DNA of 44,100 nucleotides from the NCBI GenBank assembly GCA_030167865.1, contig JALAGF010006593.1, positions 1-44,100 of the forward strand, given 5' to 3'. The translations under genes were made by a program, and so were the position numbers. Below, in pieces: positions 1 through 44,100 of the stretch. The stretch is from Craspedostauros australis. Its lineage: Eukaryota. The notes beneath the pieces were generated by a model. That model was not told where the DNA came from. It saw nothing but the letters and a program-made list of their open reading frames with translations, and ran no database searches. The first letter of the stretch is position 1, and each line of letters begins with the position of its first letter.

Positions 1-1686
1 TGCACATCGCACCGCATCACAATATGATACATCATATCACTCTCCATGCAACAACAGTTTTGTGTTCACACCAACGATTCTGTGCGAGCACAAGATAGAG
101 TCACGCTCCGGAAATTCAAGAATCGCGAACAAGTCCCAAACGACGGAAGAAAAAAGAACGTTTTGGGATGAATGACCACTGCGACTCNGTTGAAGCGCCA
201 ACGAGCACCGTGGCGTCTGTGCGTTATTCACCTAATAGGTAGCTTTCCCATGAGTTTTAGCCCTCCATAACTCTTAAAAGATAACGCCTTCAAGAGGTAG
301 AAGGTGTTCAATAGAAACTTAACATTGATAGGAAGAGTATTATATGGTTGGATACCCGATCCGTGATGCGACGCCGACTTTACTGTACTATTTTGGCTCA
401 GGCGGGTCTTATCTTTGGGTTCTCCTTTCTCGCGGAAGCCAGAATGTGGACACTTTCCTTCATTGTTGAACCTTCACGCTAATCGGCGTTTTCGGACAAG
501 AAGGAGCGCTTTGCTACTCCCGGCTCAGATCGTAGTTCCGCACCGGAGAGTCCCGTCACATCCGTGCATGCCAGGGGCTGCTACGCCTGAATACTCGCAC
601 GTGCAAATATGATGCGACATAACCGTATGAGGGGACTGCGTCCGCGTACATGTTCCCTCGCAGGAGCATGAGTATCACAACCAGAACGCTTCAATCCGTG
701 CAGTTCGTGGTTTTGTGGCGGCGTTCAACTCTCATGTCAGCGCAAGTCAATGCATGCCAACGCATATCAACGTTGGGGAACATGAGATTCTACGAGTATC
801 GTCTTCTCATGTGGCCTCCCCCAGACACCAAAGAGAGACGAATGTTTGCGTGAGTAAAGAAAATGCCAACACCCAAGCCCCGGCGGCGAGATGAGAAACC
901 ACGACAATTGAACTTGGGGTGTGCCACGTTGAGGAAGTTGGGGATGGCCCACCTTCACAGAGAAGAGGGAAGTGAGCAAGTTGTAGTTGCGGCCAGAGAA
1001 CAGAACATGTGATGTTCTGGGGCGATTTGTTGGTGGCCAAGCCAGAGCAGAGCATCGACGCTGGGGTCCTCGTGGTTATGCATGTGAATCTGGACCATAA
1101 CAGAACGGTCCCAACAAGGATGTCCCATCCCTACCAGTCGCAAAGCGCGAAGTGGGGTCGTCCAGTATGTACGATCTACTCGAGTAACAGTATTTCCATT
1201 GGTGATAACGGTACCGGCAACAGAGCGATCGATGGGAGTGCCACATGTTGGTGGGCAGGAGCGTGGGACAGTGAGATTCGCTGGTGGCTCCAAGAACGTC
1301 ACCGTCGTCGCCGCCACCAGCGACGGTTCCTGATTCCCATTCCAGAATCCATGGCTCTTCTCTTTCTCGGATCCCGGCATTGCATGGTACTCGCCATGAG
1401 CGCTTCAACCTACTTTATTATAATATTTGTTTGCGCATGTTCGAGGCAGATGCCGTTCCTCGGGTCGAACCGCGCGAATAGCCACCCATGGTGTGGAACA
1501 AAGCGGAATGATGATAGCCCCGAAGTGATCTGAGAGCACCCCCCACATGCTCGCACGGTATCGTCACAACATTGCTCTGAATAACAGGATGCAGAACAGA
1601 ATGGAACAGAACAATTGCAGTCGAGTATTGGGACAGCGGATGAAAGCCGGTCCTTATCGCTCGCCGCTCTATCGCTTCGCCGGCAC

Positions 1687-2682
1687 TCAGGATACCAGAT
1701 GCTCTCTCATGAACTTGTGCATGGTGCGGCATCCGCCTCGACAAAGGTTGATGGCCTCGTCGGACATGTCGGGATTGAGACCGCCGGATTGATTCCACAG
1801 GGTGACCTCCTTGTGATTCGGCATCATGGCGAGCACGACGGTGGCGCTGCTTTGGCTGGCTTCTGTCCTTGTTGGATCGGCGAGGCATCGCACGATATCC
1901 TTTTCGTTGGCACCGGCGTTGGCATCACCCTTCTTTTGCTTACTACTACTGCTGCTGCTGTTAGTGCTGTTGGTGCTGTTGATGGTGCTGGAGCTTGCGG
2001 CACGATCTACGAAGGCAACGACGGTGCAGCTGGTGACCATATCTACGACTTCCACGCGAGCCTCCACCAACGCGATGCTGGCCGCGCATATGCAAGCGGA
2101 CAAGCTGGATCCGTCATCCTGCAGCACGGTGACCTGAGTCCGGATGACGCACTTGGGATAGCTGGCAAGCAGAATGGTTGGCTCGATCGCGGACGACACG
2201 TGCGCGGACAGGTCGGTTTCCATGGTGGTGATCTCGGCCCGCAGCTTGCCGAAGGATATCGTCGTCGAATCCAACGGCGTTACGCAGTGCGCTCTTTGCG
2301 ATATGGCGTGCACGCCGACGTTGGGGAGGTACTGCACCTGAACCTGCAGCGTCCCCTCCTCGACGCTGGCGTTCATCTGGGTCGTCGCATCGGTCGTCGT
2401 CAGATCCACCTCCGTCAAGACCTTCGTGTGACCCAGCTCGATGAGCGCGGAGCCGAGCGAATCGGTAACCCCCGTTTCGATGCGCAGCTGTCGCAGGCCG
2501 TGATTTTGCCGCTCTTCTCCATCTCGCAACGATGTATTGCCTGTTGCCTCCGCATTGGTATTGTTGGCGCTGCTGCTGGCATCATCTTTCTCGCCATGGA
2601 TCTTCAGTGGCCGCTTGCCAGAGATGTCGGGAAGCGGCAAAGGAACGTAGCAATTGGTCAACTTCGCGGATGGCCTTGGCAT
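1687..2682 (-). CDS. Exosome complex RNase PH-family subunit (MTR3/EXOSC6-like; RRP41/RRP46 not excluded)
   Basis: 331-aa ATG-started ORF with RNase PH motifs LRQLRIETGV..GSALIELGHTKV, YPKCVIRTQVTVLQDDGSSLSACICAASIALVEA. Subunit assignment by eye only. Confidence 0.8.
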   Translation of the reverse strand: MPRPSAKLTNCYVPLPLPDISGKRPLKIHGEKDDASSSANNTNAEATGNTSLRDGEERQNHGLRQLRIETGVTDSLGSALIELGHTKVLTEVDLTTTDATTQMNASVEEGTLQVQVQYLPNVGVHAISQRAHCVTPLDSTTISFGKLRAEITTMETDLSAHVSSAIEPTILLASYPKCVIRTQVTVLQDDGSSLSACICAASIALVEARVEVVDMVTSCTVVAFVDRAASSSTINSTNSTNSSSSSSKQKKGDANAGANEKDIVRCLADPTRTEASQSSATVVLAMMPNHKEVTLWNQSGGLNPDMSDEAINLCRGGCRTMHKFMREHLVS

Positions 2683-3155
2683 CTTGGAATTCTTCGTTCG
2701 GCAGGCAGCAACTACTATGTTATACGATTATATCGTATTCTATAATACTCCACACGATTTCGTTTGGCTCGGTCTTCTGCCTTGGTTGGTGTTGCACCTG
2801 GATGCGGGTCTTCCAGTTGGGATGCTTTGGCTGAACAATAGGTCGTAGCAGTACTGCTCCTCTCGGCTGATGGCTACTGAATCGTTTCTGTTCGTTGGCG
2901 TTTGTCAGTGGTGTGGTTGGAGATGGGGTGAAACCGCGGTCTGTCGGTCGACCGTCGTATCCAAACAACCAACCAACAGAAAACACAACGAAACGAAACG
3001 AATACAAGGATGGGACGGATAGCGACCATGGCCGAAGATGGCGGCAAATGCAACGCGACCTCCCGTTCCCACACTCTCGCTGCTCTGTTGTGTTGCCTTG
3101 GTGCCATACAATACATAGTCGTATTATGCAACACACATCGCACTCAACAACCAAC

Positions 3156-3200
3156 AGAGTCAATAGAGTGAATACAGTGAATTGAGTGAATTGAGTGAAT
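3156..3200 (+). repeat. Five imperfect tandem copies of a 9-bp unit (consensus WGAGTGAAT) just upstream of the U1-C ATG
   Basis: agagtcaat-agagtgaat-acagtgaat-tgagtgaat-tgagtgaat, read directly from the sequence. Confidence 0.85.
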
Positions 3201-3214
3201 AGAGACGGTTGAAG

Positions 3215-3907
3215 ATGCCGCGGTTCTTCGATGACTACTCCAACACGTACCTGACGCATGACAGCGCAGCAGGACGCAAGCAGCAGCGACGAGGATGGAA
3301 GTTCCGCGAGAACTTCAAGCTGCATTACAACGACCGCATCCAGGACTGGCGCAAGGGATCGATGGGGCTGGCATCCGCGCAGCAGGCGTACGTGCGGGCC
3401 AGAGGCAAGGAGGACCCCATGATCCCGCCATTGCCGGACGGCTGGGTGGAAGATGTGGATGAGGTCACCTCCATGACCTTCTACAGCAACGAGGAGACCG
3501 GCGAACGCACGTGGGTCCGCCCCGGATTCATCCCACCTCCACCACCGGGTCGCGGCGGCGGGGGCTTCCGCTCGCGATCGCACCATCCCAACTTTCACAA
3601 CAACCGAGGACCACCGCAGAACTTCGGGAACCGACAGCAGCACCATCAGCCGCAGCACCATCAGCCGCAGCAACAGCAGTTTGGAGCCGCACCGCCACGA
3701 CACCACCATGTGCCGCCGCCGCATCATGCGCAGCACCATCAGCCACCACGGTTCGGTGCTGGTCCGCCGCCTCCGCCCAACATGGCACAGGGACCGCCGC
3801 CGCCGCCACCATTCATGCAGCAGGCTGGGCCACCTCCGCCCTTCATGGGTGGCCCGCCACCAACGGGTATGCCGCCGCAGCATGGTGGCTACAGGCCGCA
3901 TCCATAA
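3215..3907 (+). CDS. SNRPC: U1 snRNP protein C (U1-C)-like protein with degenerate zinc finger, WW domain and Pro/His/Gln-rich tail
   Basis: ATG at 3215 (the track's 3209 start is TTG). N-terminus [38 protein letters not shown] aligns without gaps to U1-C (human [38 protein letters not shown], from memory). WW domain [31 protein letters not shown] at 3431-3523. Proline-rich C-terminus as in U1-C. Confidence 0.85.
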
Positions 3908-4224
3908 ACTGTCCATGGTGATGGTGATGGCCATCGGCGCATGGTGTTGGCGATTGAGGATGTGTGGATGGCTTCGTAGCAGTAGCCGAGTGTAAATGCA
4001 CCTGTAACCTCCATGCAGAGTCGTATCGATGTTCGTTGCTACATGGTACCACAGGTCTGTTCACCCTCTCGAGTTGTGCCAGCGATCAACACGTGGCACC
4101 CAATGTTTGCAGAGGAGCATTGACATGTAGAATATGGTATAATGGATGATGATAGAACCATGATGTAGGACTGGCAATCAACTATTCTATAACATAGTAT
4201 ATACTAGACAAGAGTACTGCTCCA

Positions 4225-6568
4225 TTACAATTCGATTTGCTCCACTCTCGTGATGTTGGCAGTTCCGTCGATGCTGTCGAAAGGGTAATCAGGTAGCGGA
4301 TTCGGCACCACGTAAATGTACAGCGCCAGCCAGTGGAAGATGCTGCCCGACAGCACGAAGATGTGCCAGATGGCATGGTCCAGGTTGTTGTTGCGAACGA
4401 AGAACGGAACGCCCGCGGTGTATCCGACGCCTCCTAGTATCAGCAGGTTGATCCCGCCCGGTTGCAGCCGTCCCATCAACTGTGGCAGGCAAAATAGCGC
4501 GAGCCAGCCCATGCCAAGGTACATGGCCAGCGAGAAGCGCCCCCGATGCTGCCACGTCGGGCAGAAGGTCTCCACTCCGATGCCCAGGATGCACAGCAGC
4601 CAAAGGAACACCAAGAAGTAGTTGGCGTACATGGGGATGTCGTTCAGCATGATCTGGAGGAACGGGGTGTAGCTGCCGGCGATCAGGATGTAGATGGCGC
4701 ACTTGTCCATCGCTTCGAAGATGTACTTGGTGGCCTGCATCGAAAAGAAGGAGTGATAGAGCGTGGAGCTGGTGTACAGAACGATCAGGCTCGTGCTGTA
4801 GATGGCACACGTGACGGTGTGGGTGCGCGAGATGGGGTTGGCACGGTTCGCCATCAATATGCCGCCAAGGAAGCTAAGCAAAACTCCAAGACCGTGCGTG
4901 CAGCCGTTCATGATCTGACCAAATCAGCATCGTTGGAAGAGAATGTGCAATCGCGTGAGGATGAAAGTGAGGATGAGATTGCCAAATTCAACATGCAGCA
5001 CTCGCATGGTGCAAGTGCACAAGATCAATGCCAGCCAACTGGGAATGTAGAATGCAAAGACTTGTCTCCTCCAACGCACTACTATACTCTATGCACCTTC
5101 GTCTTGCCATCGTTGTATGCTCATCACTTACCTCGGGGAACACCAGATTGCCCTCCAAATCGACGTTGATGATGCTTGCAACAACCGCAGCATTATCCCC
5201 GCCGTTTGCCAATGTTCCCGCCATGCGCATGTTGAGCGCATGCTCGATGGCCAACTTCCCACGGTATCCCACGCCATTCGCACTCAAATCCACCTCCGTG
5301 AGACCCTTCAGTTTGTCGGGCGACGCCATGAGTTCTGCCAAGACCAAGGCTCCACGTTCGCGAATGCGGCAACGTCGCAAGCACAGCACTTGGATCGTCG
5401 CATTCGTCGAACATGCCAGGAACAGGGCGGATGCGCCGAACGGGCCGATCTTGTGCCGCGGCAAGTAGACTTGTCGGATGTGCTGGCTGGTCTGCAACAC
5501 CTTGGATAACGCCAATGCGCCGTGACTCGTGAAGCCCTTCTTGCGATGCAATCTGCCCTCGCGGCTGGCGACGCCAAAATCGAGACGATGGATGAACCGC
5601 AATGACGTGTTGCAATGCTTCAGCAGGACTTCCACCAACGCCAGCATGTCGGCATCGTGGAATGCACCCGTGACGCGCAGGCACGGCATTCCGAAGCGTA
5701 TGGTGGCCATGATGCCGGCGTTGATGCGATCACGGCATCCGTAGATGGCGCACGCGGCCGTGTACTCGGCGAGGATCTGCTCCATCTTCGCCGGAGGCAA
5801 CGGTGATGACGCGGAGGAGATGTTGGAATTCATCATCGGGATGGAGACCAGCGGCGAGATATGCGAACCACGCGATTGCTGTTGCAGATGCTGTCGGTTG
5901 GCCTGTTCCTGCCGGCGTCGACGGTGCTGCTGTTGCAAGGCCTGCAGATTGTACATGTCCGACGGGTCCATGTCCTCGTCATCATCAACCGGCGCCATCA
6001 TGGCCGCCATAGTCGTTGATGTTGTTGCTCCTGCTCCTGCTGCCGCTGACGGCGTCGCCGCAGCGCCTGTATCCGCATCCGCCCTTCCATCCGTCATCAA
6101 TTCGAAGAGGTCATCATTGTTGGATCCGCACTGTCGGCAGCTCAGTCCCGAAAGACATGACATGAATTTGGAGGACAGACCTGCCATGCGGCGTGGGTTC
6201 CGCTCCTGCTGCCCCTCGAACGGAACGGAGTATGCTCCATCACCATTGGGAAAGTTTGGTGCAAGCTGTTCACCGACATTAACGTTGGCATTAACGTTGG
6301 TATCAGCATTGGCATCAACCATACCTGTGTTGGCATCACCTCCATCATTTCCAACGGACGCGAGTTGTCCATTCAGATCTTCGTCACTTTTCATGGTCGA
6401 GAGTGGAGGCGTTGGGTCCTGATCGATGATCCCCTCCACCACCTGGTTCTCGTCGCCCAGTGATCCAGTCTGTTCGGCGCCATCCACCGCGTGGACCACA
6501 TTGTCAATCTTTTCTTTCTTGTCATTCTTGTCATTCTTGCCGTTGTTGCTGGCACCGCTTTCAGCCAT
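4225..6568 (-). CDS. RNI-like leucine-rich-repeat / haemolysin III (PAQR) fusion membrane protein, 2 exons, 708 aa
   Basis: Exons 6568-5132 and 4914-4225; intron 5131-4915 (GTAAGT...CAG). The join is in frame and rebuilds the PAQR ExxNxxTH motif (FPE|IMNGCTHG). Also SSTLYH, IAGSYTP, HAIWHIFV and about 7 TM helices. Exon 1 has LRR-like units (LCLRRCRIRERGALVLAE, VDLSANGVG, VDLEGN). Confidence 0.85.
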
Positions 6569-30539: not shown

Positions 30540-31835
30540 CGTGTCTCTGTCTCTGTATGTGCGTGTATGTGCGTGTATGTGAGCGTTTGTCTCGGCTTCG
30601 CAGTGGATTATTGTATTATATAATATTATATTATCGTATGTACTCTTTTGGTAGAGAGTATGCTGCACGATTGCTGTTGTGGTGCTCGTCGGCGCAGTGA
30701 TCGATTGATGAAGAGGTAGATCGTATAATAGGTTGTATGATAGGTGGTCAGGTAGGCAGGCAGGTAGGCAGGCAGGTGGAGGCAGCACTCTGACGCAACA
30801 GTCGGAGTATCGGTGTCGGTAGGTATGTCCCTTGCGTTTGTACGTGCGTCTGTGCGAGTATGACTGTGACCAAACTTGGAGCTCCTCGCAAGGTCGATCT
30901 CCGAGAGTTCCTGTTGGTGCTGTTGGCGCTGTTGGAGGCTGATCCAGGATGGATCGGTCGTGTTTAGCGGCAACTGGGTGCAACTCTCAACTTCTCAATC
31001 CCTCTTGAGATGGCGCTGCATGAATTGTGCTGTTGGTTGCGTGTCCACAATGCTGTCACTTCACCCCTCCGTGACGACGATGGCGATCCCCTTGTCTGTA
31101 TCCGTATTGGTGGCTCGTACCTCGTATGAAACCACACAGATAGAGTAGTTGCACGTGTAGATCGTATTCTATTAGATTGTAACCGGATCGTTGACGGCAA
31201 GAGAGAATTGTGCTCCTCCTCTTGTTCCCTCCTCTTGCTCTCTCCTCCTTGGATTGTTGTGGTCATCTTTTGGTCTTCCTCTCCCACACGTTGGAATCTT
31301 TCGTCCGCTCTTCGTGTCTTGGGCGACATCAATTTGGTGTTGGTTGCGCCAGTTTTGCACGCGGGTTTTGGTTGTTCTCTCTCCTTGTGGTCATTTCTCG
31401 TTGTGGCGATCCTGATTGTCATGAAAGGACTGCTCAAGCTCCTTCTTGCGCTTCAGTCATGCGTGTTTGAAATACGCCCCACCACTCACGTTTCAAGGCA
31501 AACGTGAACCATTCGACTTTGTGTCGCGAAAATCTGTTGTGTGGTTCCAAACAGTTCCAAGCGGTTGTGTGTGGTCGCACGTGGTTGGACGCGGTGTGAT
31601 GCCACCAATGTCACGCGTGCTCAAACACACACACCAGAACAGAAGATCGCAGTCAGAATTCTGGGAGCTGTTTCTGGATCTTCCATCGCTCTCCGCACAC
31701 AATTCTTGAAGGCAGACAATCCCATCACCCTGCATCCACCACAACACTCATACATCACAACACTCATACATCACAACATCAGTTAAAGCAGCAATAGAAG
31801 TAACACCAGCACCAGCACCAGCAGGAGAAGCAACA

Positions 31836-33941
31836 ATGACGACAGAAGAAAAGGCACAAGACGCGGGGACAGCAGAGACGGGAGATGATGCCGACAGCGG
31901 CAACACGCGCAACCCGCTGTCGGGACGCGAGATGGAGCTGGCGAACAACCCTCCGGAGCTGATGGAGGCCCACAAGAAGCGCAACGGCAACATCGTTCGC
32001 ACGCGCTTCCCTCCCGAACCCAACGGCTACCTCCACATCGGCCACGCCAAGTCCATGAACATGAACTTCCACCTGGCCTTCGAGAAGGTCGGCGTCGCCA
32101 AGGAGAACCGCCGCACGATTTTCCGCTACGACGACACCAACCCGGACGCGGAGAGCAAGGAGTACATCGAATCGCTGCGGCGCGACGTCGAGTACATGGG
32201 CTGGACGCCCGAGCGCACCACCTACGCGTCCGACAACTTCCAGAAGCTCTACGAGTTCGCCCTGGACCTCATCAACAAGGGGCTGGCCTACGTCTGCGAC
32301 ATGACCAAGAGCGAGATGGAGCAGCAAAGGGAGCTCGCCATGAAGCGGGTCATCGCGATCAACACCGGCAAGGACCCCGATCAGGTCGCGCCCATCACCT
32401 CCACGGACATCCTGCCTGGCCGCAACCGCAACACCAGCGTCCAACGCAACCTGGACCTCTTCCAAAAGATGAAGGACGGCTTCTTCGACGAGGGCACGTA
32501 CACCCTGCGTCTCAAGATGGACCTCGAGAGCTCAAACCCAAACATGTTCGATCTGGTCGCATACCGCATCAAATACACGTCGCACCCGCACGCCGGGGAC
32601 GGATGGTGCATCTACCCGGCGTACGACTTCACCCACGGTGTCTGCGACTCCCTCGAGGACATTGACTACTCCATCTGCACGCTGGAATTCGAGACGCGTC
32701 GCGAGCCCTACTACTGGATCCTGTGGGCCATCAATCTATACCGTCCCCACGTTTACGAAATGTCGCGACTCAACTTGGAGTACACCGTGCTCAGCAAACG
32801 CCGCCTCCTCAAGCTCGTCAATGCAGGCTACGTGCGCGGTTGGGACGATCCGCGCATGCCCACCATCTCCGGTCTGCGCCGACGAGGCTACACCAAGGAC
32901 ATCCTCAACAACTTCTGCAACGCGGTCGGCGTCACGCGCGTCAAGAACGTCATCCAAATGGAGATGCTCTACAACACGGCGCGCAACGAGCTCAGCGCAT
33001 CCTCCCGACGTGCCATGGCGGCCATGGACCCCATCAAGATCACCTTCACCAACTGGGATGAGTACAAGGACACGCCAATCTCGTTCGACGTCCAGAACTC
33101 GCCGACCGACGAGGCCCTTGGCAAGCACACCATCACGCTCACGCCCGTCATCTACATCGATGCCACCGATTTCCGGTTGGAGAATTCACCGTCCTACTAC
33201 GGCCTGGCGCCCAACAAGGCGGTGGGCGTCAAGTACTTTGGAGGCAATATGATCTGCGACGAAGTCACCAAGGGAGCGGATGGCAAGGTCACCGAATTGA
33301 AGTGCCGGTTGGACAACAAGGACGACAGACCCAAGCCGCAGACGTGGATCAGCTGGGTCCCACAGGACGGCATCCGCTGCGAGGTCCGTATCTACGATCA
33401 CCTCTTCACGGTCGCCGAGCCAACCGAGCTTTGGGAGGAGGAGCTCAATTCAAAGTCGGAGGTCGTTTACGGCAACGCCATCGTCGATCCTTCCGTCCGC
33501 GACCTCGTCGACTACCGTGACGTCGACGTGTGGAAATCCAACACCGCGTTGCAATTCGAGCGCATGGGCTACTTCGTCGTGGACATCGACACCAAGTTCG
33601 ACAAGGACACGGGCAAGGGCAAGCTCGTCTTCAACCGCACGGTGTCGCTCAAGCAGGAGGCCACGATCAAGAAGCTGACGAAGGCCCAGGAGGAGACCAA
33701 CGCGGCGCGCAGGGCCAAGCAGGCCAAGGACAAGGCGGCCAAGGAAGCGCGCATGAAGATCGAGCCCAAGAACCTCTTCAAGGAGGCAGAAGAGCACAAG
33801 GGCAAGTACACCCAGTTCGATGCGGAGACCGGCATCCCAACCCACGACGCGGCGGGCAAGGAACTGACCAAGAGCGCCAAGAAGAAGCTGGCCAAGGAGC
33901 AGAACAAGCATATTAACATGCTCAAGAAGGCGGGCAAGTGA
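31836..33941 (+). CDS. QARS1: Glutaminyl-tRNA synthetase (class I)
   Basis: TRFPPEPNGYLHIGHAK, RYDDTNP, YPAYDFTH, CTLEF, VLSKRRL, GWDDPRMPTISGLRRRG and QFERMGYF; strong GC3 bias. Confidence 0.95.
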   Translation: MTTEEKAQDAGTAETGDDADSGNTRNPLSGREMELANNPPELMEAHKKRNGNIVRTRFPPEPNGYLHIGHAKSMNMNFHLAFEKVGVAKENRRTIFRYDDTNPDAESKEYIESLRRDVEYMGWTPERTTYASDNFQKLYEFALDLINKGLAYVCDMTKSEMEQQRELAMKRVIAINTGKDPDQVAPITSTDILPGRNRNTSVQRNLDLFQKMKDGFFDEGTYTLRLKMDLESSNPNMFDLVAYRIKYTSHPHAGDGWCIYPAYDFTHGVCDSLEDIDYSICTLEFETRREPYYWILWAINLYRPHVYEMSRLNLEYTVLSKRRLLKLVNAGYVRGWDDPRMPTISGLRRRGYTKDILNNFCNAVGVTRVKNVIQMEMLYNTARNELSASSRRAMAAMDPIKITFTNWDEYKDTPISFDVQNSPTDEALGKHTITLTPVIYIDATDFRLENSPSYYGLAPNKAVGVKYFGGNMICDEVTKGADGKVTELKCRLDNKDDRPKPQTWISWVPQDGIRCEVRIYDHLFTVAEPTELWEEELNSKSEVVYGNAIVDPSVRDLVDYRDVDVWKSNTALQFERMGYFVVDIDTKFDKDTGKGKLVFNRTVSLKQEATIKKLTKAQEETNAARRAKQAKDKAAKEARMKIEPKNLFKEAEEHKGKYTQFDAETGIPTHDAAGKELTKSAKKKLAKEQNKHINMLKKAGK

Positions 33942-38068: not shown

Positions 38069-38680
38069 TTAGTCCTGAAAGACGTCCTCCTCGAATCGAC
38101 CTTCGAGGATGTCGACGTCGTTCATGTGACAGATGCCTTGGCCATGCATCATCCCGTCTTTCCATTCTCCTTCGTACCACAGATCATTCATCCATACCTT
38201 TCTCCCTTTGCCTTCATGCTTGCCATGTTTCCATTCACCTTCATACCACAGGATGTCTTCGTCATTGTCGGCATATTCCATGCGCCCATCTCCGTGCGGT
38301 TGGCCATCGAGCAGATGCCCAACGTACACATCGCCATTCGTGTAGTTGACCGTTCCTTGCTCCTTGTCCCGATTATTGGCACGGTCTGCTTCGGCAATCC
38401 GACTTTGCTCCGCTTCTTTGCGAGACCGTTCCGCGTCCTCTTCCTGCTTGCGCCTTGTCTGCGTTTCGACTCGTTTCATCCACTTATCGTAGTTCTTGGT
38501 GTTGCAGATGGGACAGTATCCATCGTCACGCGCGGCCGTCATGGTGTACCCCACACCATCCACGTACATCTCGTAGCACCCATCGTCGGCGATCGGTCGA
38601 ATATCTTCGCACGCGCAGCACTTGGCGAGGCTGGAGGGGTAGCAGTGATGACCGCAGGATTTTTGTTCTCGGCTGATCAT
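38069..38680 (-). CDS. MORN-repeat protein with Cys-rich N-terminal domain (5' end possibly interrupted by the retrotransposon)
   Basis: MORN repeats YVGHLLDGQPHGDGRMEY, YEGEWKHGKHEGKGRKVW and YEGEWKDGMMHGQGIC. First ATG at 38680; the frame stays open up to the LTR junction. Confidence 0.75.
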   Translation of the reverse strand: MISREQKSCGHHCYPSSLAKCCACEDIRPIADDGCYEMYVDGVGYTMTAARDDGYCPICNTKNYDKWMKRVETQTRRKQEEDAERSRKEAEQSRIAEADRANNRDKEQGTVNYTNGDVYVGHLLDGQPHGDGRMEYADNDEDILWYEGEWKHGKHEGKGRKVWMNDLWYEGEWKDGMMHGQGICHMNDVDILEGRFEEDVFQD

Positions 38681-38696
38681 GTCCAAGTAGGCAGAT

Positions 38697-38887
38697 TGTC
38701 AATAAGACGAGTAGTGTGTGAATCAATGTTGTTCGCTAATATTATGAGATATTACATTGCTGAGCTGAGGAGTTGCGGTCTTGGCTCCTGCTAGTGTCTT
38801 GATCTGCTCTAGGAGGAAAGTGGGCGCGAGGTGCGCACTTTGCGTACGNNGGTCAGTCGGGTCACGTGCGGGACTGGAATCAATACA
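38697..38887 (-). repeat. 3' LTR (about 191 bp, TGTATTG...TTGACA)
   Basis: 3' end fixed by the match to the 5' LTR. 5' end inferred from the TG directly after the purine-rich GCGAGGG (38894-38888). Confidence 0.8.
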
Positions 38888-41800
38888 CCCTCGCGTAACT
38901 CCCAACATGCTCTGTCTTGCTGATTTGCCGCTGTCAGGGGTAGGCTTGAGGTACACTTCTCTCATTTTTCTGTGATGGGCCGTCGGATGATGCTTCGTGA
39001 AGTAGTCGGCGAGATTGTCTGCTCCGGGGGCCCAGTAGNNNNNNNNNNNNNNNNNNNNNNNNNNNNNNNNNNNNNNNNNNNNNNNNNNACTGGAATCAAT
39101 ACACCCTCGCGTAACTCCCAACATGCTCTGTCTTGCTGATTTGCCGCTGTCAGGGGTAGGCTTGAGGTACACGTCTCTCATTTTTCTGTGATGGGCCGTC
39201 GGATGATGCTTCGTGAAGTAGTCGGCGAGATTGTCTGCTCCGGGGGCCCAGTAGACAATGAATTGTCCTTGCTGGATCCGGTCGCGCACCCAGTAGAAGC
39301 GCATGTCCATTGCTCTGGTGCGTCGCTGTTTCATGGTGTTGTTGACGATGCCGGATGCGGTGGAATTGTCTGTTTTGATGGGTGTGGGCGGTTGGGTGTG
39401 GCCCAGTTCGTCCAGCGTGGTGCGTAGGGCGGATGCCGCTGTGCAGTTCAGGTAGAGCGCTCCCACTTCGGCCTCCGCCGCTGAGCTCATTACGTTCTGT
39501 ATTTTGTTGCAGACCGTGTGGATGGCACCGTTGTTTGGAGGTGGGTTGGCTGGCGCCTTGGTGTCCGTCGGGGATCTACTGCTGAGGTACATGTGGCCGC
39601 CGGCGCGGCTTCTGGCCTTTGGCAGGCTCAGGTATGATGCGTCACTGTCGACATGTAGTATCATGTCGCTGGCGGTGTACACGATGGTCGCATTGGGGTG
39701 CGTGGCGCAGTAGTCGAGTAGCTGTCGTACCCGGTTCGCTGTGTTGTGCGTGGCATGTGCTTGTTGAGTGGCGATGTCGCTGACTGCGGGAAGGATGGTT
39801 GGGTCGACGGCTCTTGCGTAGTATAGTAGGGTTCCTACTATTTGTCGGATGCGGATGATGTCTTCTGCTGGTAGCTCCGGTGCGGTGTCCTCCAGTTTGG
39901 GTTCTTGCGTTCTCGCGCCGTAGACTGGCGCTTCGCACGGCGCTGGCGCATGTTGTGGCTTGGTGGGGATCGGATGTTGGAATTTGTGAAGCGCCTTTTT
40001 CACGTATCCTGGCATGGACAGCTCCACTTTTCTCGCGTCGTAGTCCCACTTGAGGCTGACGCCGCAGTAGAGATCGCCGTCCCACTCGATGGTGCACTTG
40101 TATATTGTTTGAAGTGCCCCGATGAGATGCTGTGCGTGCTCTTTGCCCACGTATTTGACTCCGAAGTCGTCGACGACGAGAGTGAATGTGATGGGTCTGC
40201 AGTCGTGTTTCCACAATCCTGGAGTGTGTGGGACTGGTCTGTATCCGAATTTTGCGAGGTGTTTTTGGAGCTTCACATTTGCAATTTTGCCTGCTTGTGG
40301 TAGCCCATACATTCCCTTGCGTACTTCGACGTACACGTTGCCCTTGTGTTCGAGCTTGTGCAGCTGGTATTGCTCGATGACCTCTGGTGGCAGCATTGCC
40401 ATCGGCATGCGCATGTATTCGTATCTGTCCATTTCGGTGTTCAGATAAAAATCCTTGATGTCGATGGTCATGAACTTTGCTCCTGGGGTGGAGACAACGC
40501 TGTTGAACAAACACTTTGCTGTGGTGAGTTCCGCGGTTGGTGTGTGCACGTCGAAGGGGTAATCGATTAGGTTGCCTCCTACGGTGAGGCGCGTGCGATG
40601 TGTTTCCGCCTTTTGTGGTCTGACGGCGCATACGATGCGGCCGTAGGTTACGGTGCGATTTCGTGGTACTGCCGACCTTGGGACGAAGAAGATTGTGTTG
40701 GTTGCCGCCGACGCCGGAATGCGTGTTCCGATGCCTTGCGCCAAACGCCCGATCTCGTTCGCGAATGATGTGTACCATTGCTGCGGGGTGTGGCCGTGGA
40801 CTTTGCCTGCGATGAGGTGGCGGTATTCGTACGCCGTGCCTGTGCGTTCGTCGATGACTGCGTTCGCCGTGCTAGTTCCGCGCGTCCATTGCTTGCGTTG
40901 GATGGTTCCTGTGCGTAGCCGTGTGCGCGGCGCCGTCGCGTCGCTCGTTGTGGTTGGCGCTTGCGCCCTGCGGTCTTCGTTGTCGTCGTCGTCATCGGTG
41001 TCTGATTCGGGGTCTGAGTCTGCTTCGTCGTCGGTGACCTGTGGTGTCGCCTGGGGCACCCTCGGAGGTGTGCGCGCTGGCGTCGTGAAGGTGACGCGTT
41101 TCTGTTTGTTGCCGCCGCTGGCTGTGGTGAGCACCCTCGGAGGTGGCTCTGTCCGCACCCTCGGAAGTGGTGCTGCGGGCACTCTCGGAAGTGGTGCGGT
41201 GGGTGTTGCTGGGAGCGTCGTCTGGAAGATGTCGCTGAGCTGCTGTAGTGCTCCCAGCTGCTCGTCGCCGACTGATTGTAGTGGCGCGCAGGGTTTGGTG
41301 AGCGCTGCGGCGAGGTCGCCGGCTGCTTTGATGGCCATTTCTGCGTTGGTTGGCGTGGGCATCGCGCACTTGCTCGGCATCAACTCGATGGTGTCGGTGA
41401 CGCGGACTTTGCGCGTTTTGTTGCAATACACCTTGTAGCATCGGTAGTGCTCGAGTGCTGGTGCGATGTACCATCCGGCGGATCCGTGTGGTGCCCATGT
41501 GGCTCGCTTGTTGGGCTTGTCATGGATGACTGCCTTCGTTCCTGGTGGTGCCATCGGCGTTGCGTTGAAGTCGAAGTTGCCGTGGAGCGCGTGATGTGCT
41601 GAGATGTGCGGGTTGATGCGTGACGGTCGTAGCAGGTTGAGTGTGATGTCGCACTGCGGGAGGAGCTGGCACCACAGGTGGAGTGGAAATGCCTCGTCGG
41701 CCGTGGCCAGCCCTGCGATGAAGTGGTCCTTCCAAGTGGAGATAGCTCTCTCTGCAGCGTTGCGCCGATGGATGCCCGGTGGTACAAGTTGGTATTGCAT

Positions 41801-42805
41801 ACCTTTGGATTCGATGAGGTGCTTGAGTTCTTTCGGTGCCTCGTTGTCGAGCCGGTGAAATCGCGGTGTCATTCCGCTTCGAAGGAGAACCGTCAAAAGT
41901 TCGTCACACGCTCGCGTGAGTTCAGTTGCGTGCCGACTGCGCATCGGTCGCGAAAGAATCGCGTTGGAGTCGTGATCGTACAACACCATGATGTACTGGT
42001 ATCCACGGCTTGACGTCACTGGGAAGCGTCCCGTTTGATCGGTGAAGATTTTACCCGTTGGCCGATAAACGTCCATGAAGATTTCGCGTTGTTCCGTGGG
42101 ATTCTTGGTGGACTGGGTGACGTGGTTACAGTGATTGCGTGTGGACTGCGTGTTCTGGTACTGTTGCCGGAGGTGCCCAGCGGCTGTGGCGGTGGAGGGT
42201 GGAAGGAATTTTCGCACCATTTGTTCAGTCAGTCCGGGCCACGACGAAAAGAATCCTTTCTTGATGGCTGCCGTGAACGTGGATACCGCGGGGCTGAAGC
42301 AGCACTGGTGGTAATATTTGGCCAGTTCCGTCTTGGTTGACGTGTGATGGATGTGATTGGCCATTTTTGGCGATGTTGGCTTCGGCGTTTGGATGTCGAT
42401 GCGATACATGCCGTCAACTTGATGCCGACAACCGGTGTGAATCGTGTTTCCGTTTTTTCGAATTCTCACGGATTCTTGGTCGAAGTCAACCGTCATGCCG
42501 TGGTCACACAGTTGCCCCACCGACACAAGCGCCGCGCTGGAAAGTTGTGGAAAAACTCGCGCGGTGCACGCGTGCTGCGGTACATTGGCAATGCTGACCG
42601 TGGCTCGGTGGGAAGATTGGATGCTGGATCCGTCGGGCAACGACACCGATAACGGGTTATCGTCGGGTGTTTGGCCAGTGCAAGGATCTTCAGGTCGCAG
42701 GAAATGACTAGTGCAACCAGAGTCAACAATGGCGAGGGCAGGAGCACAGGACGGTGAAGTAGTAACAGAGAGTGCTACTTGCTTACTGTGGTCCTGCCGT
42801 GCTTG
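38723..42805 (-). CDS. pol: Copia pol: protease, integrase, reverse transcriptase, RNase H
   Basis: Frame is open from the gag stop. PR AIVDSGCTSHF lies upstream of the track's start. IN FTDQTG/LDNE/NAAERAI; RT DIKDFYL, GMYGLPQAG, LVVDDF; RH VDSDAS, AEAEV, KTDN, NLADYFTK. Includes a 50-N gap and a duplicated 166-bp segment. Confidence 0.92.
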   Translation of the reverse strand, partial: QARQDHSKQVALSVTTSPSCAPALAIVDSGCTSHFLRPEDPCTGQTPDDNPLSVSLPDGSSIQSSHRATVSIANVPQHACTARVFPQLSSAALVSVGQLCDHGMTVDFDQESVRIRKNGNTIHTGCRHQVDGMYRIDIQTPKPTSPKMANHIHHTSTKTELAKYYHQCCFSPAVSTFTAAIKKGFFSSWPGLTEQMVRKFLPPSTATAAGHLRQQYQNTQSTRNHCNHVTQSTKNPTEQREIFMDVYRPTGKIFTDQTGRFPVTSSRGYQYIMVLYDHDSNAILSRPMRSRHATELTRACDELLTVLLRSGMTPRFHRLDNEAPKELKHLIESKGMQYQLVPPGIHRRNAAERAISTWKDHFIAGLATADEAFPLHLWCQLLPQCDITLNLLRPSRINPHISAHHALHGNFDFNATPMAPPGTKAVIHDKPNKRATWAPHGSAGWYIAPALEHYRCYKVYCNKTRKVRVTDTIELMPSKCAMPTPTNAEMAIKAAGDLAAALTKPCAPLQSVGDEQLGALQQLSDIFQTTLPATPTAPLPRVPAAPLPRVRTEPPPRVLTTASGGNKQKRVTFTTPARTPPRVPQATPQVTDDEADSDPESDTDDDDDNEDRRAQAPTTTSDATAPRTRLRTGTIQRKQWTRGTSTANAVIDERTGTAYEYRHLIAGKVHGHTPQQWYTSFANEIGRLAQGIGTRIPASAATNTIFFVPRSAVPRNRTVTYGRIVCAVRPQKAETHRTRLTVGGNLIDYPFDVHTPTAELTTAKCLFNSVVSTPGAKFMTIDIKDFYLNTEMDRYEYMRMPMAMLPPEVIEQYQLHKLEHKGNVYVEVRKGMYGLPQAGKIANVKLQKHLAKFGYRPVPHTPGLWKHDCRPITFTLVVDDFGVKYVGKEHAQHLIGALQTIYKCTIEWDGDLYCGVSLKWDYDARKVELSMPGYVKKALHKFQHPIPTKPQHAPAPCEAPVYGARTQEPKLEDTAPELPAEDIIRIRQIVGTLLYYARAVDPTILPAVSDIATQQAHATHNTANRVRQLLDYCATHPNATIVYTASDMILHVDSDASYLSLPKARSRAGGHMYLSSRSPTDTKAPANPPPNNGAIHTVCNKIQNVMSSAAEAEVGALYLNCTAASALRTTLDELGHTQPPTPIKTDNSTASGIVNNTMKQRRTRAMDMRFYWVRDRIQQGQFIVYWAPGADNLADYFTKHHPTAHHRKMRDVYLKPTPDSGKSARQSMLGVTRGCIDSSXXXXXXXXXXXXXXXXXYWAPGADNLADYFTKHHPTAHHRKMREVYLKPTPDSGKSARQSMLGVTRGCIDSSPARDPTDXRTQSAHLAPTFLLEQIKTLAGAKTATPQLSNVISHNISEQH

Positions 42806-43969
42806 TCATGCGTTCGCCGGGGCGCCTTCGGTGGACCCTCCCATCGTGTTGCTGCGAGTGGCCTCCTTCTTGTGTCCTGGCGCTGGGTTCATGCACGTTG
42901 CGCTGGTGTGCGTGATGCCCACCTTGTATCCGTGTGTCCAGCAGTAGGAGGTGTGCTTGTGCTTGCGACCTCCTTTCTTGCTTCCGTTGCCGCTGCTTGT
43001 GGCCGCATTGGCTTGTAGCTGGGACACCATCGCCGTGATCTCGGACAACTGCTTGACGAGGTTGGCGTTGCTTTCGGTGAGCTGGGCCACGGTGCTGCGA
43101 TCCGCAGCTGTGGCGGACGCGAGGTTGGCGAGCGCGTCGGCGGTCTCCGTGGCGGTGATCGCCGCATTGGCTCCTTGGAAGTTGGCGCCATTCGCTGTGG
43201 CTTGCGATTCGCGGAGATCTTGATGAGCTGCTGCGAAGTCTCGCTTGAAGCGAGTCCATGTCTTGTCGGCGGCACTGAGAGCGCGGAAAGAACGGCAGGC
43301 TTCGGGGAACGCTTGTGTTCGGAACACCAGGTTGTATGCCGTGGTGACGAGCTGGTGATCCGCGTACGGCGCTTTGGCAGCAGCCGCAAGATCGCGCGCA
43401 GACTCGATTTGGGCGACGAGCACTTCGAACGGCGCCGTCGGGTCGTAGGGTGTCTTCATGGCCTTGTCGTTTTCGTCGAGGTCTTGTGGTGTGATCTTGC
43501 CGTATGTGGAGTACAGGTGGGTCAGAAGCTCGAGCGTCGTGACGTTGGCGTATCCGACGATGTTGTGGCGGAGAGTTCGCACGTACTGGTCTTCGATGGC
43601 GCCAAGAAGCTGCTGCTTGAGGGCATTGTCGACCGCGCGGTACTCTCTCCAAAGGCGCTCTTGTTCCTTGTGGATGCTGGTGGCGGCGCTGATCTGGGCT
43701 GCAGTGGCCGCGTTCGGGATGTTCGGGTGCGGTCCTGGGTTGACCGGCACGACGAATGCTGTCGCCGAATGTTCTTGGTACACCTCTCGGGAGACGGTGA
43801 GGACCAGGTATCCGAGCTGACCGTTTCCGAGGGGGCAGTGCACCGAGGCCGCATTGGCGTTGAGGACTACATTGAGTTCTGCGATGGACTCGTATGTGGG
43901 TACCCCGACGATGGGTTCGACGANTGCCTGNGGAAAGGTGGCGAGGATCTTCTCGTGGCTGTTGGCCAT
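42806..43969 (-). CDS. gag: Copia gag with C-terminal CWTHG-type zinc-binding motif
   Basis: 387-aa ORF starting 68 nt after the 5' LTR. LGNGQLGYL, LLTHLYSTYG, YDP..PFE, W..FK.DF and YCWTHG..HTSATC..GH, as I recall from diatom copia Gags. Confidence 0.9.
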   Translation of the reverse strand: MANSHEKILATFXQAXVEPIVGVPTYESIAELNVVLNANAASVHCPLGNGQLGYLVLTVSREVYQEHSATAFVVPVNPGPHPNIPNAATAAQISAATSIHKEQERLWREYRAVDNALKQQLLGAIEDQYVRTLRHNIVGYANVTTLELLTHLYSTYGKITPQDLDENDKAMKTPYDPTAPFEVLVAQIESARDLAAAAKAPYADHQLVTTAYNLVFRTQAFPEACRSFRALSAADKTWTRFKRDFAAAHQDLRESQATANGANFQGANAAITATETADALANLASATAADRSTVAQLTESNANLVKQLSEITAMVSQLQANAATSSGNGSKKGGRKHKHTSYCWTHGYKVGITHTSATCMNPAPGHKKEATRSNTMGGSTEGAPANA

Positions 43970-44023
43970 GGTGATGATTTTTGGTGATGCTGGTCTTGGT
44001 GACCGAGATTTTCAAACGTTGGC

Positions 44024-44037
44024 TATTAGCGAACAAC
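44024..44037 (-). other. Primer-binding-site position (GTTGTTCGCTAATA), complementary to LTR 44069-44082
   Basis: Immediately follows the LTR-terminal CA; lacks the TGG start of a tRNA-CCA PBS; perfect 14-nt inverted repeat with the LTR. Confidence 0.8.
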
Positions 44038-44100
44038 TGTCAATAAGACGAGTAGTGTGTGAATCAATGTTGTTCGCTAATATTATGAGATATTACATTG
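44038..44100 (-). repeat. 5' LTR (partial, 3' portion)
   Basis: Identical to 38697-38759. Confidence 0.95.

Follow-up and report, generated by a model that had tools for sequence, protein, structure and literature searches.

Predicted self-priming of reverse transcription in a clade of diatom Ty1/copia retrotransposons

A Ty1/copia retrotransposon of the diatom Craspedostauros australis is predicted to prime reverse transcription with its own RNA, in the manner of Tf1, and not with a tRNA, and the same design would hold across the clade to which it belongs. A probability of roughly 0.7 is attached to this reading, all of the support for self-priming being computational prediction. The element lies on a 44,100-nt stretch of contig JALAGF010006593.1, referred to here as the window, and all coordinates are those of the window unless a related locus is named. 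The case is built on an inverted repeat that joins the 5' LTR to the predicted primer binding site (PBS), on the position of this repeat relative to the LTR end, and on compensatory changes in its two arms among related elements.

Layout and classification of the element

The minus strand of the window carries a complete-looking Ty1/copia LTR retrotransposon, with its 5' LTR ending at 44038 and its 3' LTR ending at 38697. The window stops inside the 5' LTR after 63 nt (44038..44100, minus strand), and the full length of the LTR is deduced from the 3' copy and from relatives. These 63 nt form a direct repeat with positions 38697-38759 (63/63 identical), both copies stopping at ...TTGACA; the bases past this point differ, the PBS arm following the 5' copy and the flank 'atctgcc' following the 3' copy. 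The 3' LTR (38697..38887, minus strand; TGTATTG...TTGACA) is approximately 191 nt long. Its end is given by the direct repeat, and its start, placed to within 2 nt by analogy with relatives, is probably 38887: 'gcgagggtg' or close variants stand immediately before the 3' LTR in five related loci (L006, L048, L008, L039 and L034), and in the window a polypurine-tract-like GCGAGGG (38888..38894, minus strand) would abut the LTR at this point.

The gag frame (42806..43969, minus strand) consists of 387 codons, starting with an ATG at 43969 and ending with a TGA stop at 42806-42808. It gave tblastn matches to relatives and no match in Pfam, and it has two N, in codons near 43924 and 43931. The pol frame (38723..42805, minus strand), recognized from its translation, an RVT_2 match and homologues, follows in phase right after the TGA. 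The order of its domains, as read from the translation, is protease, integrase, reverse transcriptase (RT) and RNase H. RVT_2 is the sole Pfam match in the element (E 5.3e-07), its 29.9 bits lying just under the curated cut-off of 31.6 bits. The location of the integrase before RT/RNase H, the RVT_2-type RT and the TG..CA ends of the LTRs place the element in Ty1/copia, whereas the PR-RT-RH-IN order and chromodomain of the Ty3/gypsy elements of the Tf1/sushi family are not what was found. A 5-bp target duplication was seen, by eye, only in relatives L006 and L048; the 5' flank of the window element lies outside the window.

Several further observations were made on the element and its surroundings. 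The pol frame runs open for approximately 55 codons into the 3' LTR, to a TGA stop at 38723-38725 that lies inside the 31-nt loop sequence described below. The last conserved motif of pol (R-G-C-V/I in the alignment consensus) is encoded by 'cgagggtgt', which is at the same time the polypurine-like tract and the LTR start (window 38723-38890, minus strand). An assembly gap of 50 N (39039-39088) interrupts pol and is flanked by a 166-nt direct duplicate (38873-39038 and 39089-39254, 99%). This duplicate extends over the terminal part of pol and 15 nt at the start of the LTR, and the C-terminus of pol is thus doubled in the translation; gap and duplicate together (38873-39254) have the look of an artefact produced by scaffolding at a repeat. 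The insertion lies directly upstream of a MORN-repeat gene (38069-38698, minus strand). Further host genes of the window, all of them long uninterrupted frames, include those for a ferric reductase/NADPH-oxidase-like protein, a CENP-S-domain protein, a protein kinase, a RING-finger protein and a glutaminyl-tRNA synthetase (31710-33941), the best named matches of the last being those of Nitzschia, Pseudo-nitzschia, Seminavis, Conticribra and Odontella, with 66-69% identity, in support of a diatom host.

The inverted repeat where the 5' LTR ends

In element sense, the region is ordered as ...tcataa TATTAGCGAACAAC, then 31 nt ending in TTGACA, then GTTGTTCGCTAATA gcc.... The first of the two named sequences is the putative self-primer arm in the LTR (44069..44082, minus strand) and the second is the predicted PBS (44024..44037, minus strand), which has no TGG. 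The two arms are 14 nt long, 100% complementary and 31 nt apart. The loop between them (44038..44068, minus strand) comprises the remainder of R together with U5, and is the proposed template of the strong-stop DNA. As the direct repeat independently fixes where the 5' LTR stops, the second arm begins at LTR end +1. A sequence-only reading of this DNA had described a perfect 14-nt inverted repeat whose second arm starts, without a TGG, at the first base after the LTR, and this description was confirmed.

Allowing up to two mismatches, the 14-mer has three matches in the window, namely the two LTR copies (the one inside the 3' LTR lying at 38728-38741) and the PBS; the mean in shuffled sequence was 0.19, and none of 100 shuffles reached three. 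Folding of the RNA from 44086 to 43966 placed the duplex in both the MFE and the centroid structures (-23.9 kcal/mol, z = -2.97).

The case for priming is strongest in the placement of the right arm. An LTR has its 3' end set by the point at which minus-strand synthesis starts, and LTR end +1 is therefore where the primer of the minus strand must sit; in the window this place holds a sequence able to pair with the LTR of the element itself.

Related elements and their LTRs

Scoring of 8000 candidates against the RT-RNase H part of pol gave 2077 homologues with E values no higher than 0.001; almost all come from metagenome assemblies, and the best is 77% identical. With an alignment of 19 homologues, 79 loci were retrieved from metagenome contigs. 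Leaders were located via the N-terminus of gag (tblastn with the gag of the window), and the upstream 300-450 nt were scanned for perfect inverted repeats whose loop measured 10-130 nt, the longest being kept. This yielded 46 unique leaders from 80 sources (the 79 loci and the window), the remaining sources having no gag match or too little upstream sequence; L039, one of these, was read by eye.

Two LTR copies with defined ends are present in five loci (L006, L048, L045, L039 and L034, the 5' LTR of L034 starting at the contig end). These LTRs are short, at 119-230 nt, and in all five loci the 10-13 nt past the 5' LTR have their complement in a stretch of LTR located 25-74 nt upstream, with a sequence that differs each time. 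Among the six elements with independently defined LTR ends, the right arm stands at LTR end +1 in five (the window element, L006, L048, L034 and L039), the position in L045 being ambiguous by 1 nt.

L045 is an older copy, with LTRs that are 95.8% identical. The arm in its 5' LTR (locus positions 292-303) still matches the PBS perfectly, and the arm copy in its 3' LTR, near locus positions 5595-5606, has one substitution (TTAATCGAAGAC against TTAATCTAAGAC); this is a single case. It was also observed that many metagenome contigs have 60-5373 identical nt at both ends (L002, L014, L015, L020, L021, L028, L031, L036-L038, L043, L047, L049, L058, L059, L061, L062, L064, L068, L076 and L077). The period of these contigs is approximately that of one element minus one LTR, so that one LTR lies between the end of pol and gag. 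Such overlaps may arise from the assembler cycling through collapsed LTRs, or may represent tandem or circular one-LTR forms.

Conservation and covariation of the arms

A perfect repeat of 9-14 nt was found at the same place in 43 of the 46 unique leaders. The best arm measured 7 nt in one leader, 8 nt in two, 9 nt in three, 10 nt in six, 11 nt in seven, 12 nt in eighteen, 13 nt in seven and 14 nt in two. In the three leaders with arms shorter than 9 nt, the duplex at this place is interrupted, with 12/13 pairs in L004, 11/13 in L075, and 8 pairs, a G-U and 3 further pairs in L046. Arms of at least 10 nt occur in 40/46 leaders, compared with 22/727 control windows of 300 nt from the same loci and 18/920 shuffled leaders; the control windows may hold second copies of a leader (L047, L058 and L064), by which the control counts would be inflated, and the comparison is conservative in this respect.

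The 43 leaders with a repeat contain 37 distinct arm sequences, each of them matched by its partner, and the two arms thus co-vary. The loops are 19-74 nt long, and the duplex is part of the MFE fold in 42/43 leaders. The right arm is preceded by CA in 37 leaders, by TA in four and by another dinucleotide in two; its first base is G in 36/43, and a TGG start was found in none of the 43.

Covariation was measured on the eight of these sequences that share a loop of 31 nt and give a gap-free helix, a MAFFT alignment of 14 leaders having misaligned the arms and been set aside. Across 13 pairs in the eight sequences, 94.2% of the cells are standard pairs, compared with 27-36% after a shift of the partner by 1-3 columns. 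Both sides change in 10 of the 13 pairs, and 0/500 shuffles reached any of five measures. In anchored counts over all 43 leaders, standard pairing (Watson-Crick or G-U) holds in 40 leaders at pair 10, in 39 at pair 11 and in 29 at pair 12, with background level beyond pair 13, while pairs 1-9 are perfect through the selection of the rows and have as their informative control the arm-length counts of the control windows and shuffles. These counts indicate a duplex of approximately 11-13 bp. The presence of compensatory changes in both arms across families had been set as a check by the sequence-only reading, and they are abundantly present; such changes indicate, at the level of sequence comparison, that the pairing is functional.

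Some positions of the arm are nearly fixed, with T at -10 in 42/43 leaders, A at -8 in 36/43 and A at -4 in 40/43. This points to a second constraint on the arm, perhaps a promoter or a poly(A) signal. By eye, many relatives also have in their loops, 5-12 nt past the LTR arm, a T-rich stretch ending in CA (tttaca, tttatca, ttaacaac), which may represent a poly(A) site or a signal of another kind.

An initiator-like motif beside the LTR arm

Immediately upstream of the LTR arm, the relatives carry (C)TCATAA, CCATAA or CATTAA, which can be summarized as CAT(A/T)A; in the window the putative initiator-like motif is TCATAA (44083..44088, minus strand). A script detected TCAHW within 30 nt in 32/43 leaders, compared with 41/164 upstream windows of 31 nt, and the 11 leaders that it missed were all found by eye to have CATAA or CATTAA. 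In 29 of the 32 leaders detected by the script, the A of CA stands 14-17 nt before the final base of the arm, with 15 or 16 nt as the usual spacing. It has been proposed that genes of Phaeodactylum and promoters of diatom viruses share an Inr-like consensus, TCAH+1W (Kadono 2015, PMC4686930), and the CAT(A/T)A motif fits this consensus in sequence. The candidate transcript start in the window is accordingly the A at 44086 or the T at 44085, which leaves 3-4 nt between it and the arm and lends indirect support to the start at or near 44082 that the sequence-only reading expected. Transcript-like contigs, recognizable by poly(A) tails or by heads at this motif, were sought, and none was usable.

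Proposed mechanism of priming

Transcription would begin in the 5' LTR at TCATAA, at about 44085-44086. Nucleotides 4-17 or so of the RNA (44082-44069), whose potential to pair is conserved, could fold over the 31-nt loop onto the 14 nt that follow the LTR (44037-44024). By analogy with Tf1, the RNase H of the element would then cut after the last paired base, which is the C at 44069 in the window and a C in 36/43 leaders, and a primer of approximately 16 nt would be left on the PBS. Copying of the loop by the RT would give a strong-stop DNA of very small size, 31 nt in the window element and 19-74 nt in relatives, which would move to the R copy in the 3' LTR. Plus-strand strong-stop synthesis would copy the primer and so rewrite the PBS in each cycle, by which the arms would stay perfectly complementary. 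Priming of this kind needs two conditions: the transcript made from the 5' LTR must include the LTR arm, and the poly(A) site at the 3' end must lie beyond the arm, in which case the loop would be common to both ends of the RNA.

Among the features that count against such a mechanism are a start at the CA/T of the motif, which would leave 3-4 nt unpaired at the 5' end of the RNA, loops of 19-20 nt, which would provide very little R for the first strand transfer, and the second constraint on the arm described above. The additional duplexes of the Tf1 'pretzel' were searched for by pairing the loop against the 35 nt past the PBS, with shuffled sequence as reference. None were detected (mean z 0.05, median 0.14, 1/43 below -2), in a crude energy test that could overlook duplexes of low stability or small length. 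The modelled structure therefore looks like a plain hairpin rather than a 'pretzel'.

Alternative explanations

The hairpin might instead be a regulatory RNA structure, which would occlude the poly(A) signal in the 5' copy of R or act as a signal for packaging, dimerisation or translation, with something else as the real primer. The poly(A) hairpin of HIV-1 is a precedent for an occluded 5' poly(A) signal or site. Such a role would agree with the A/T-rich 5' half of the LTR arm and its fixed positions, with the negative search for a pretzel, and with the placement of the complement only downstream of the 5' LTR, by which masking of the arm would be confined to the 5' end of the RNA, leaving it free at the 3' end. 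It gives no explanation, however, for the exact abutment of the right arm on the LTR (after CA in 37/43 leaders, and in 5/6 elements with independent LTR ends), nor for the arm filling the sole possible place of a PBS with 0/43 TGG starts. As a replacement for self-priming this explanation is considered unlikely, although a regulatory role could accompany priming as a second function of the same hairpin.

Much less probable still is a primer of host origin, be it an internal tRNA fragment, a half-tRNA of the type that copia itself uses or some other small RNA, to which the match with the LTR would be secondary. A subset of the arms ends in GTAGCTC, which we take to resemble a strand of the tRNA D-arm. 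Half-tRNA primers are known in Ty1/copia lineages (Neumann 2019, PMC6317226). A host RNA would nevertheless be expected to keep the PBS constant and gives no reason for complementarity to the LTR, whereas 37 different PBS sequences occur in 43 related elements, each perfectly matched by its own LTR. The PBS also has no TGG, and positions 43850-44100 gave no match to Rfam families at E values up to 1. A scan for tRNA genes in the window and in 20 of the 79 related loci found none to set against the PBS. A chance inverted repeat or an assembly artefact, to which the N runs and nearby duplicated block of this draft assembly might point, is refuted for practical purposes by the shuffle and control-window counts, the covariation shuffles, and the recurrence of the feature in independent metagenome assemblies with 37 different arm sequences.

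The stop codon between gag and pol

Twenty elements had enough sequence for the junction of gag and pol to be read, the other 26/46 leaders being too short. A single in-frame stop separates the two frames in 16 of these (the window element, L008, L022, L031, L032, L034, L037, L042, L047, L048, L054, L058, L062, L064, L065 and L077), and the other four have several stops or a frameshift. The single stop is TGA in 16/16, followed by C in 12, by A in three and by G in one; in the window the junction reads TGA-CAA (42806-42808, minus strand). With TGA in every single-stop element, read-through of UGA looks, on sequence grounds, like a design of the whole clade and not a quirk of the window copy. 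The window element had earlier been presented as one young element that combines self-priming with UGA read-through. Hairpin and TGA stop are indeed both present, but as features of a clade (43/46 leaders for the hairpin, 16/16 for TGA) rather than of a single element.

Comparison with other retrotransposons

To our knowledge, self-priming has been proven only for Tf1 of fission yeast and is predicted elsewhere for a few lineages. In Tf1, bases 1 to 11 of the mRNA anneal to the PBS, the RNase H cut falling between bases 11 and 12 (PMC7175516), and a 'pretzel' of three duplexes is required (PMC10085805). Self-priming is considered common in the Tf1/sushi group. The diatom element resembles Tf1 and Tf2 of Schizosaccharomyces pombe in having a PBS that directly follows an LTR ending in CA and is complementary to that same LTR (PMC7175516, PMC10085805). 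The predicted duplex is close in length to the 11 bases of Tf1, the Tf1 PBS has no complementarity to a tRNA just as the PBS here has no TGG, and the cut needed at the 3' side of the primer arm in Tf1 is predicted here as well. The differences lie firstly in classification, Tf1/sushi elements being Ty3/gypsy chromoviruses while the PR-IN-RT-RH order and RVT_2 match are found here and no chromodomain was seen. Furthermore, the diatom element gives no sign of a pretzel, its clade has loops of only 19-74 nt, and the predicted 5' end has 3-4 unpaired nucleotides, whereas the first 11 of Tf1 all pair. Tf1 is also proven by genetics and biochemistry, whereas the diatom element is a prediction only.

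Within Ty1/copia, self-priming has been predicted for the TAR lineage of plants (Houba, Osr-1) from complementarity to the LTR of at least 10 bp that starts 0-5 bp past the 5' LTR (Neumann 2019, PMC6317226). The window element, likewise Ty1/copia, shows complementarity of this extent and at this place, and so falls under the same published criterion. The hosts differ, being green plants in one case and diatoms in the other, and the LTRs of the diatom elements are very short (119-230 nt in relatives with two LTRs). The view from which the sequence-only reading had started, that copia elements are normally primed by tRNA or half-tRNA, is corrected by the TAR prediction. The GalEa copia elements of fungi have a Conserved Hairpin Site in place of a PBS, and the authors of that study state that they found no complement in U5 (Donnart 2017, PMC5445492). 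They are similar to the diatom element as copia elements that have no tRNA-type PBS and a conserved hairpin at the PBS position; however, the hairpin of GalEa forms from a local palindrome, to which the final A of the LTR belongs, while the partner here lies inside the LTR, as in Tf1.

The CoDi elements of diatoms share the type of host, the PR-IN-RT-RH order and the TG/CA termini with the window element, whose LTR of approximately 191 nt lies inside the 153-844 bp reported for them; 'one or no stop codon/frameshift' has been reported between their gag and pol (Maumus 2009, PMC2806351). A proposal of self-priming for a CoDi element of Phaeodactylum, which the sequence-only reading had mentioned, could not be traced: a term search of the main text of Maumus 2009 (PMC2806351) returned no statement on a retroelement PBS, priming or tRNA, the sole 'PBS' being a buffer. 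More widely, no published statement of self-priming or of the type of PBS was found for diatom or CoDi elements in a search largely confined to literature outside subscription journals.

Significance

Self-primed LTR retrotransposons are already a known kind, and a self-priming copia element is not unprecedented. This is apparently the first case to be argued for copia elements of diatoms, and for a whole clade, and the comparative support, with 37 co-varying arm sequences, is stronger than in the papers compared. Dozens of related elements in aquatic metagenomes appear to be primed in this way. A fuller proposal is put forward tentatively, at a little short of even odds: that of a widespread clade of diatom Ty1/copia elements, not yet in print, which would have no tRNA primers and would use a self-primer of one hairpin without a pretzel, with an R-U5 of approximately 35-90 nt, an initiator-like motif from which the 3' end of the primer is mostly 15-16 nt away, an obligatory read-through of UGA, and an origin independent of Tf1/sushi and of the plant TAR lineage.

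For annotation, a PBS search based on tRNAs is not expected to find the site in these elements. Their small leader, consisting of the initiator, a primer of approximately 16 nt, a loop of 19-74 nt and the PBS, would be a compact system for the cutting of a primer from an RNA duplex by RNase H, and would also show strand transfer with a very short R. The case concerns the dominant transposons of diatoms, described as stress-activated elements that shape diatom genomes (Maumus 2009, PMC2806351); if the present reading is true, the diatom elements studied here would be independent of the tRNAs of their hosts.
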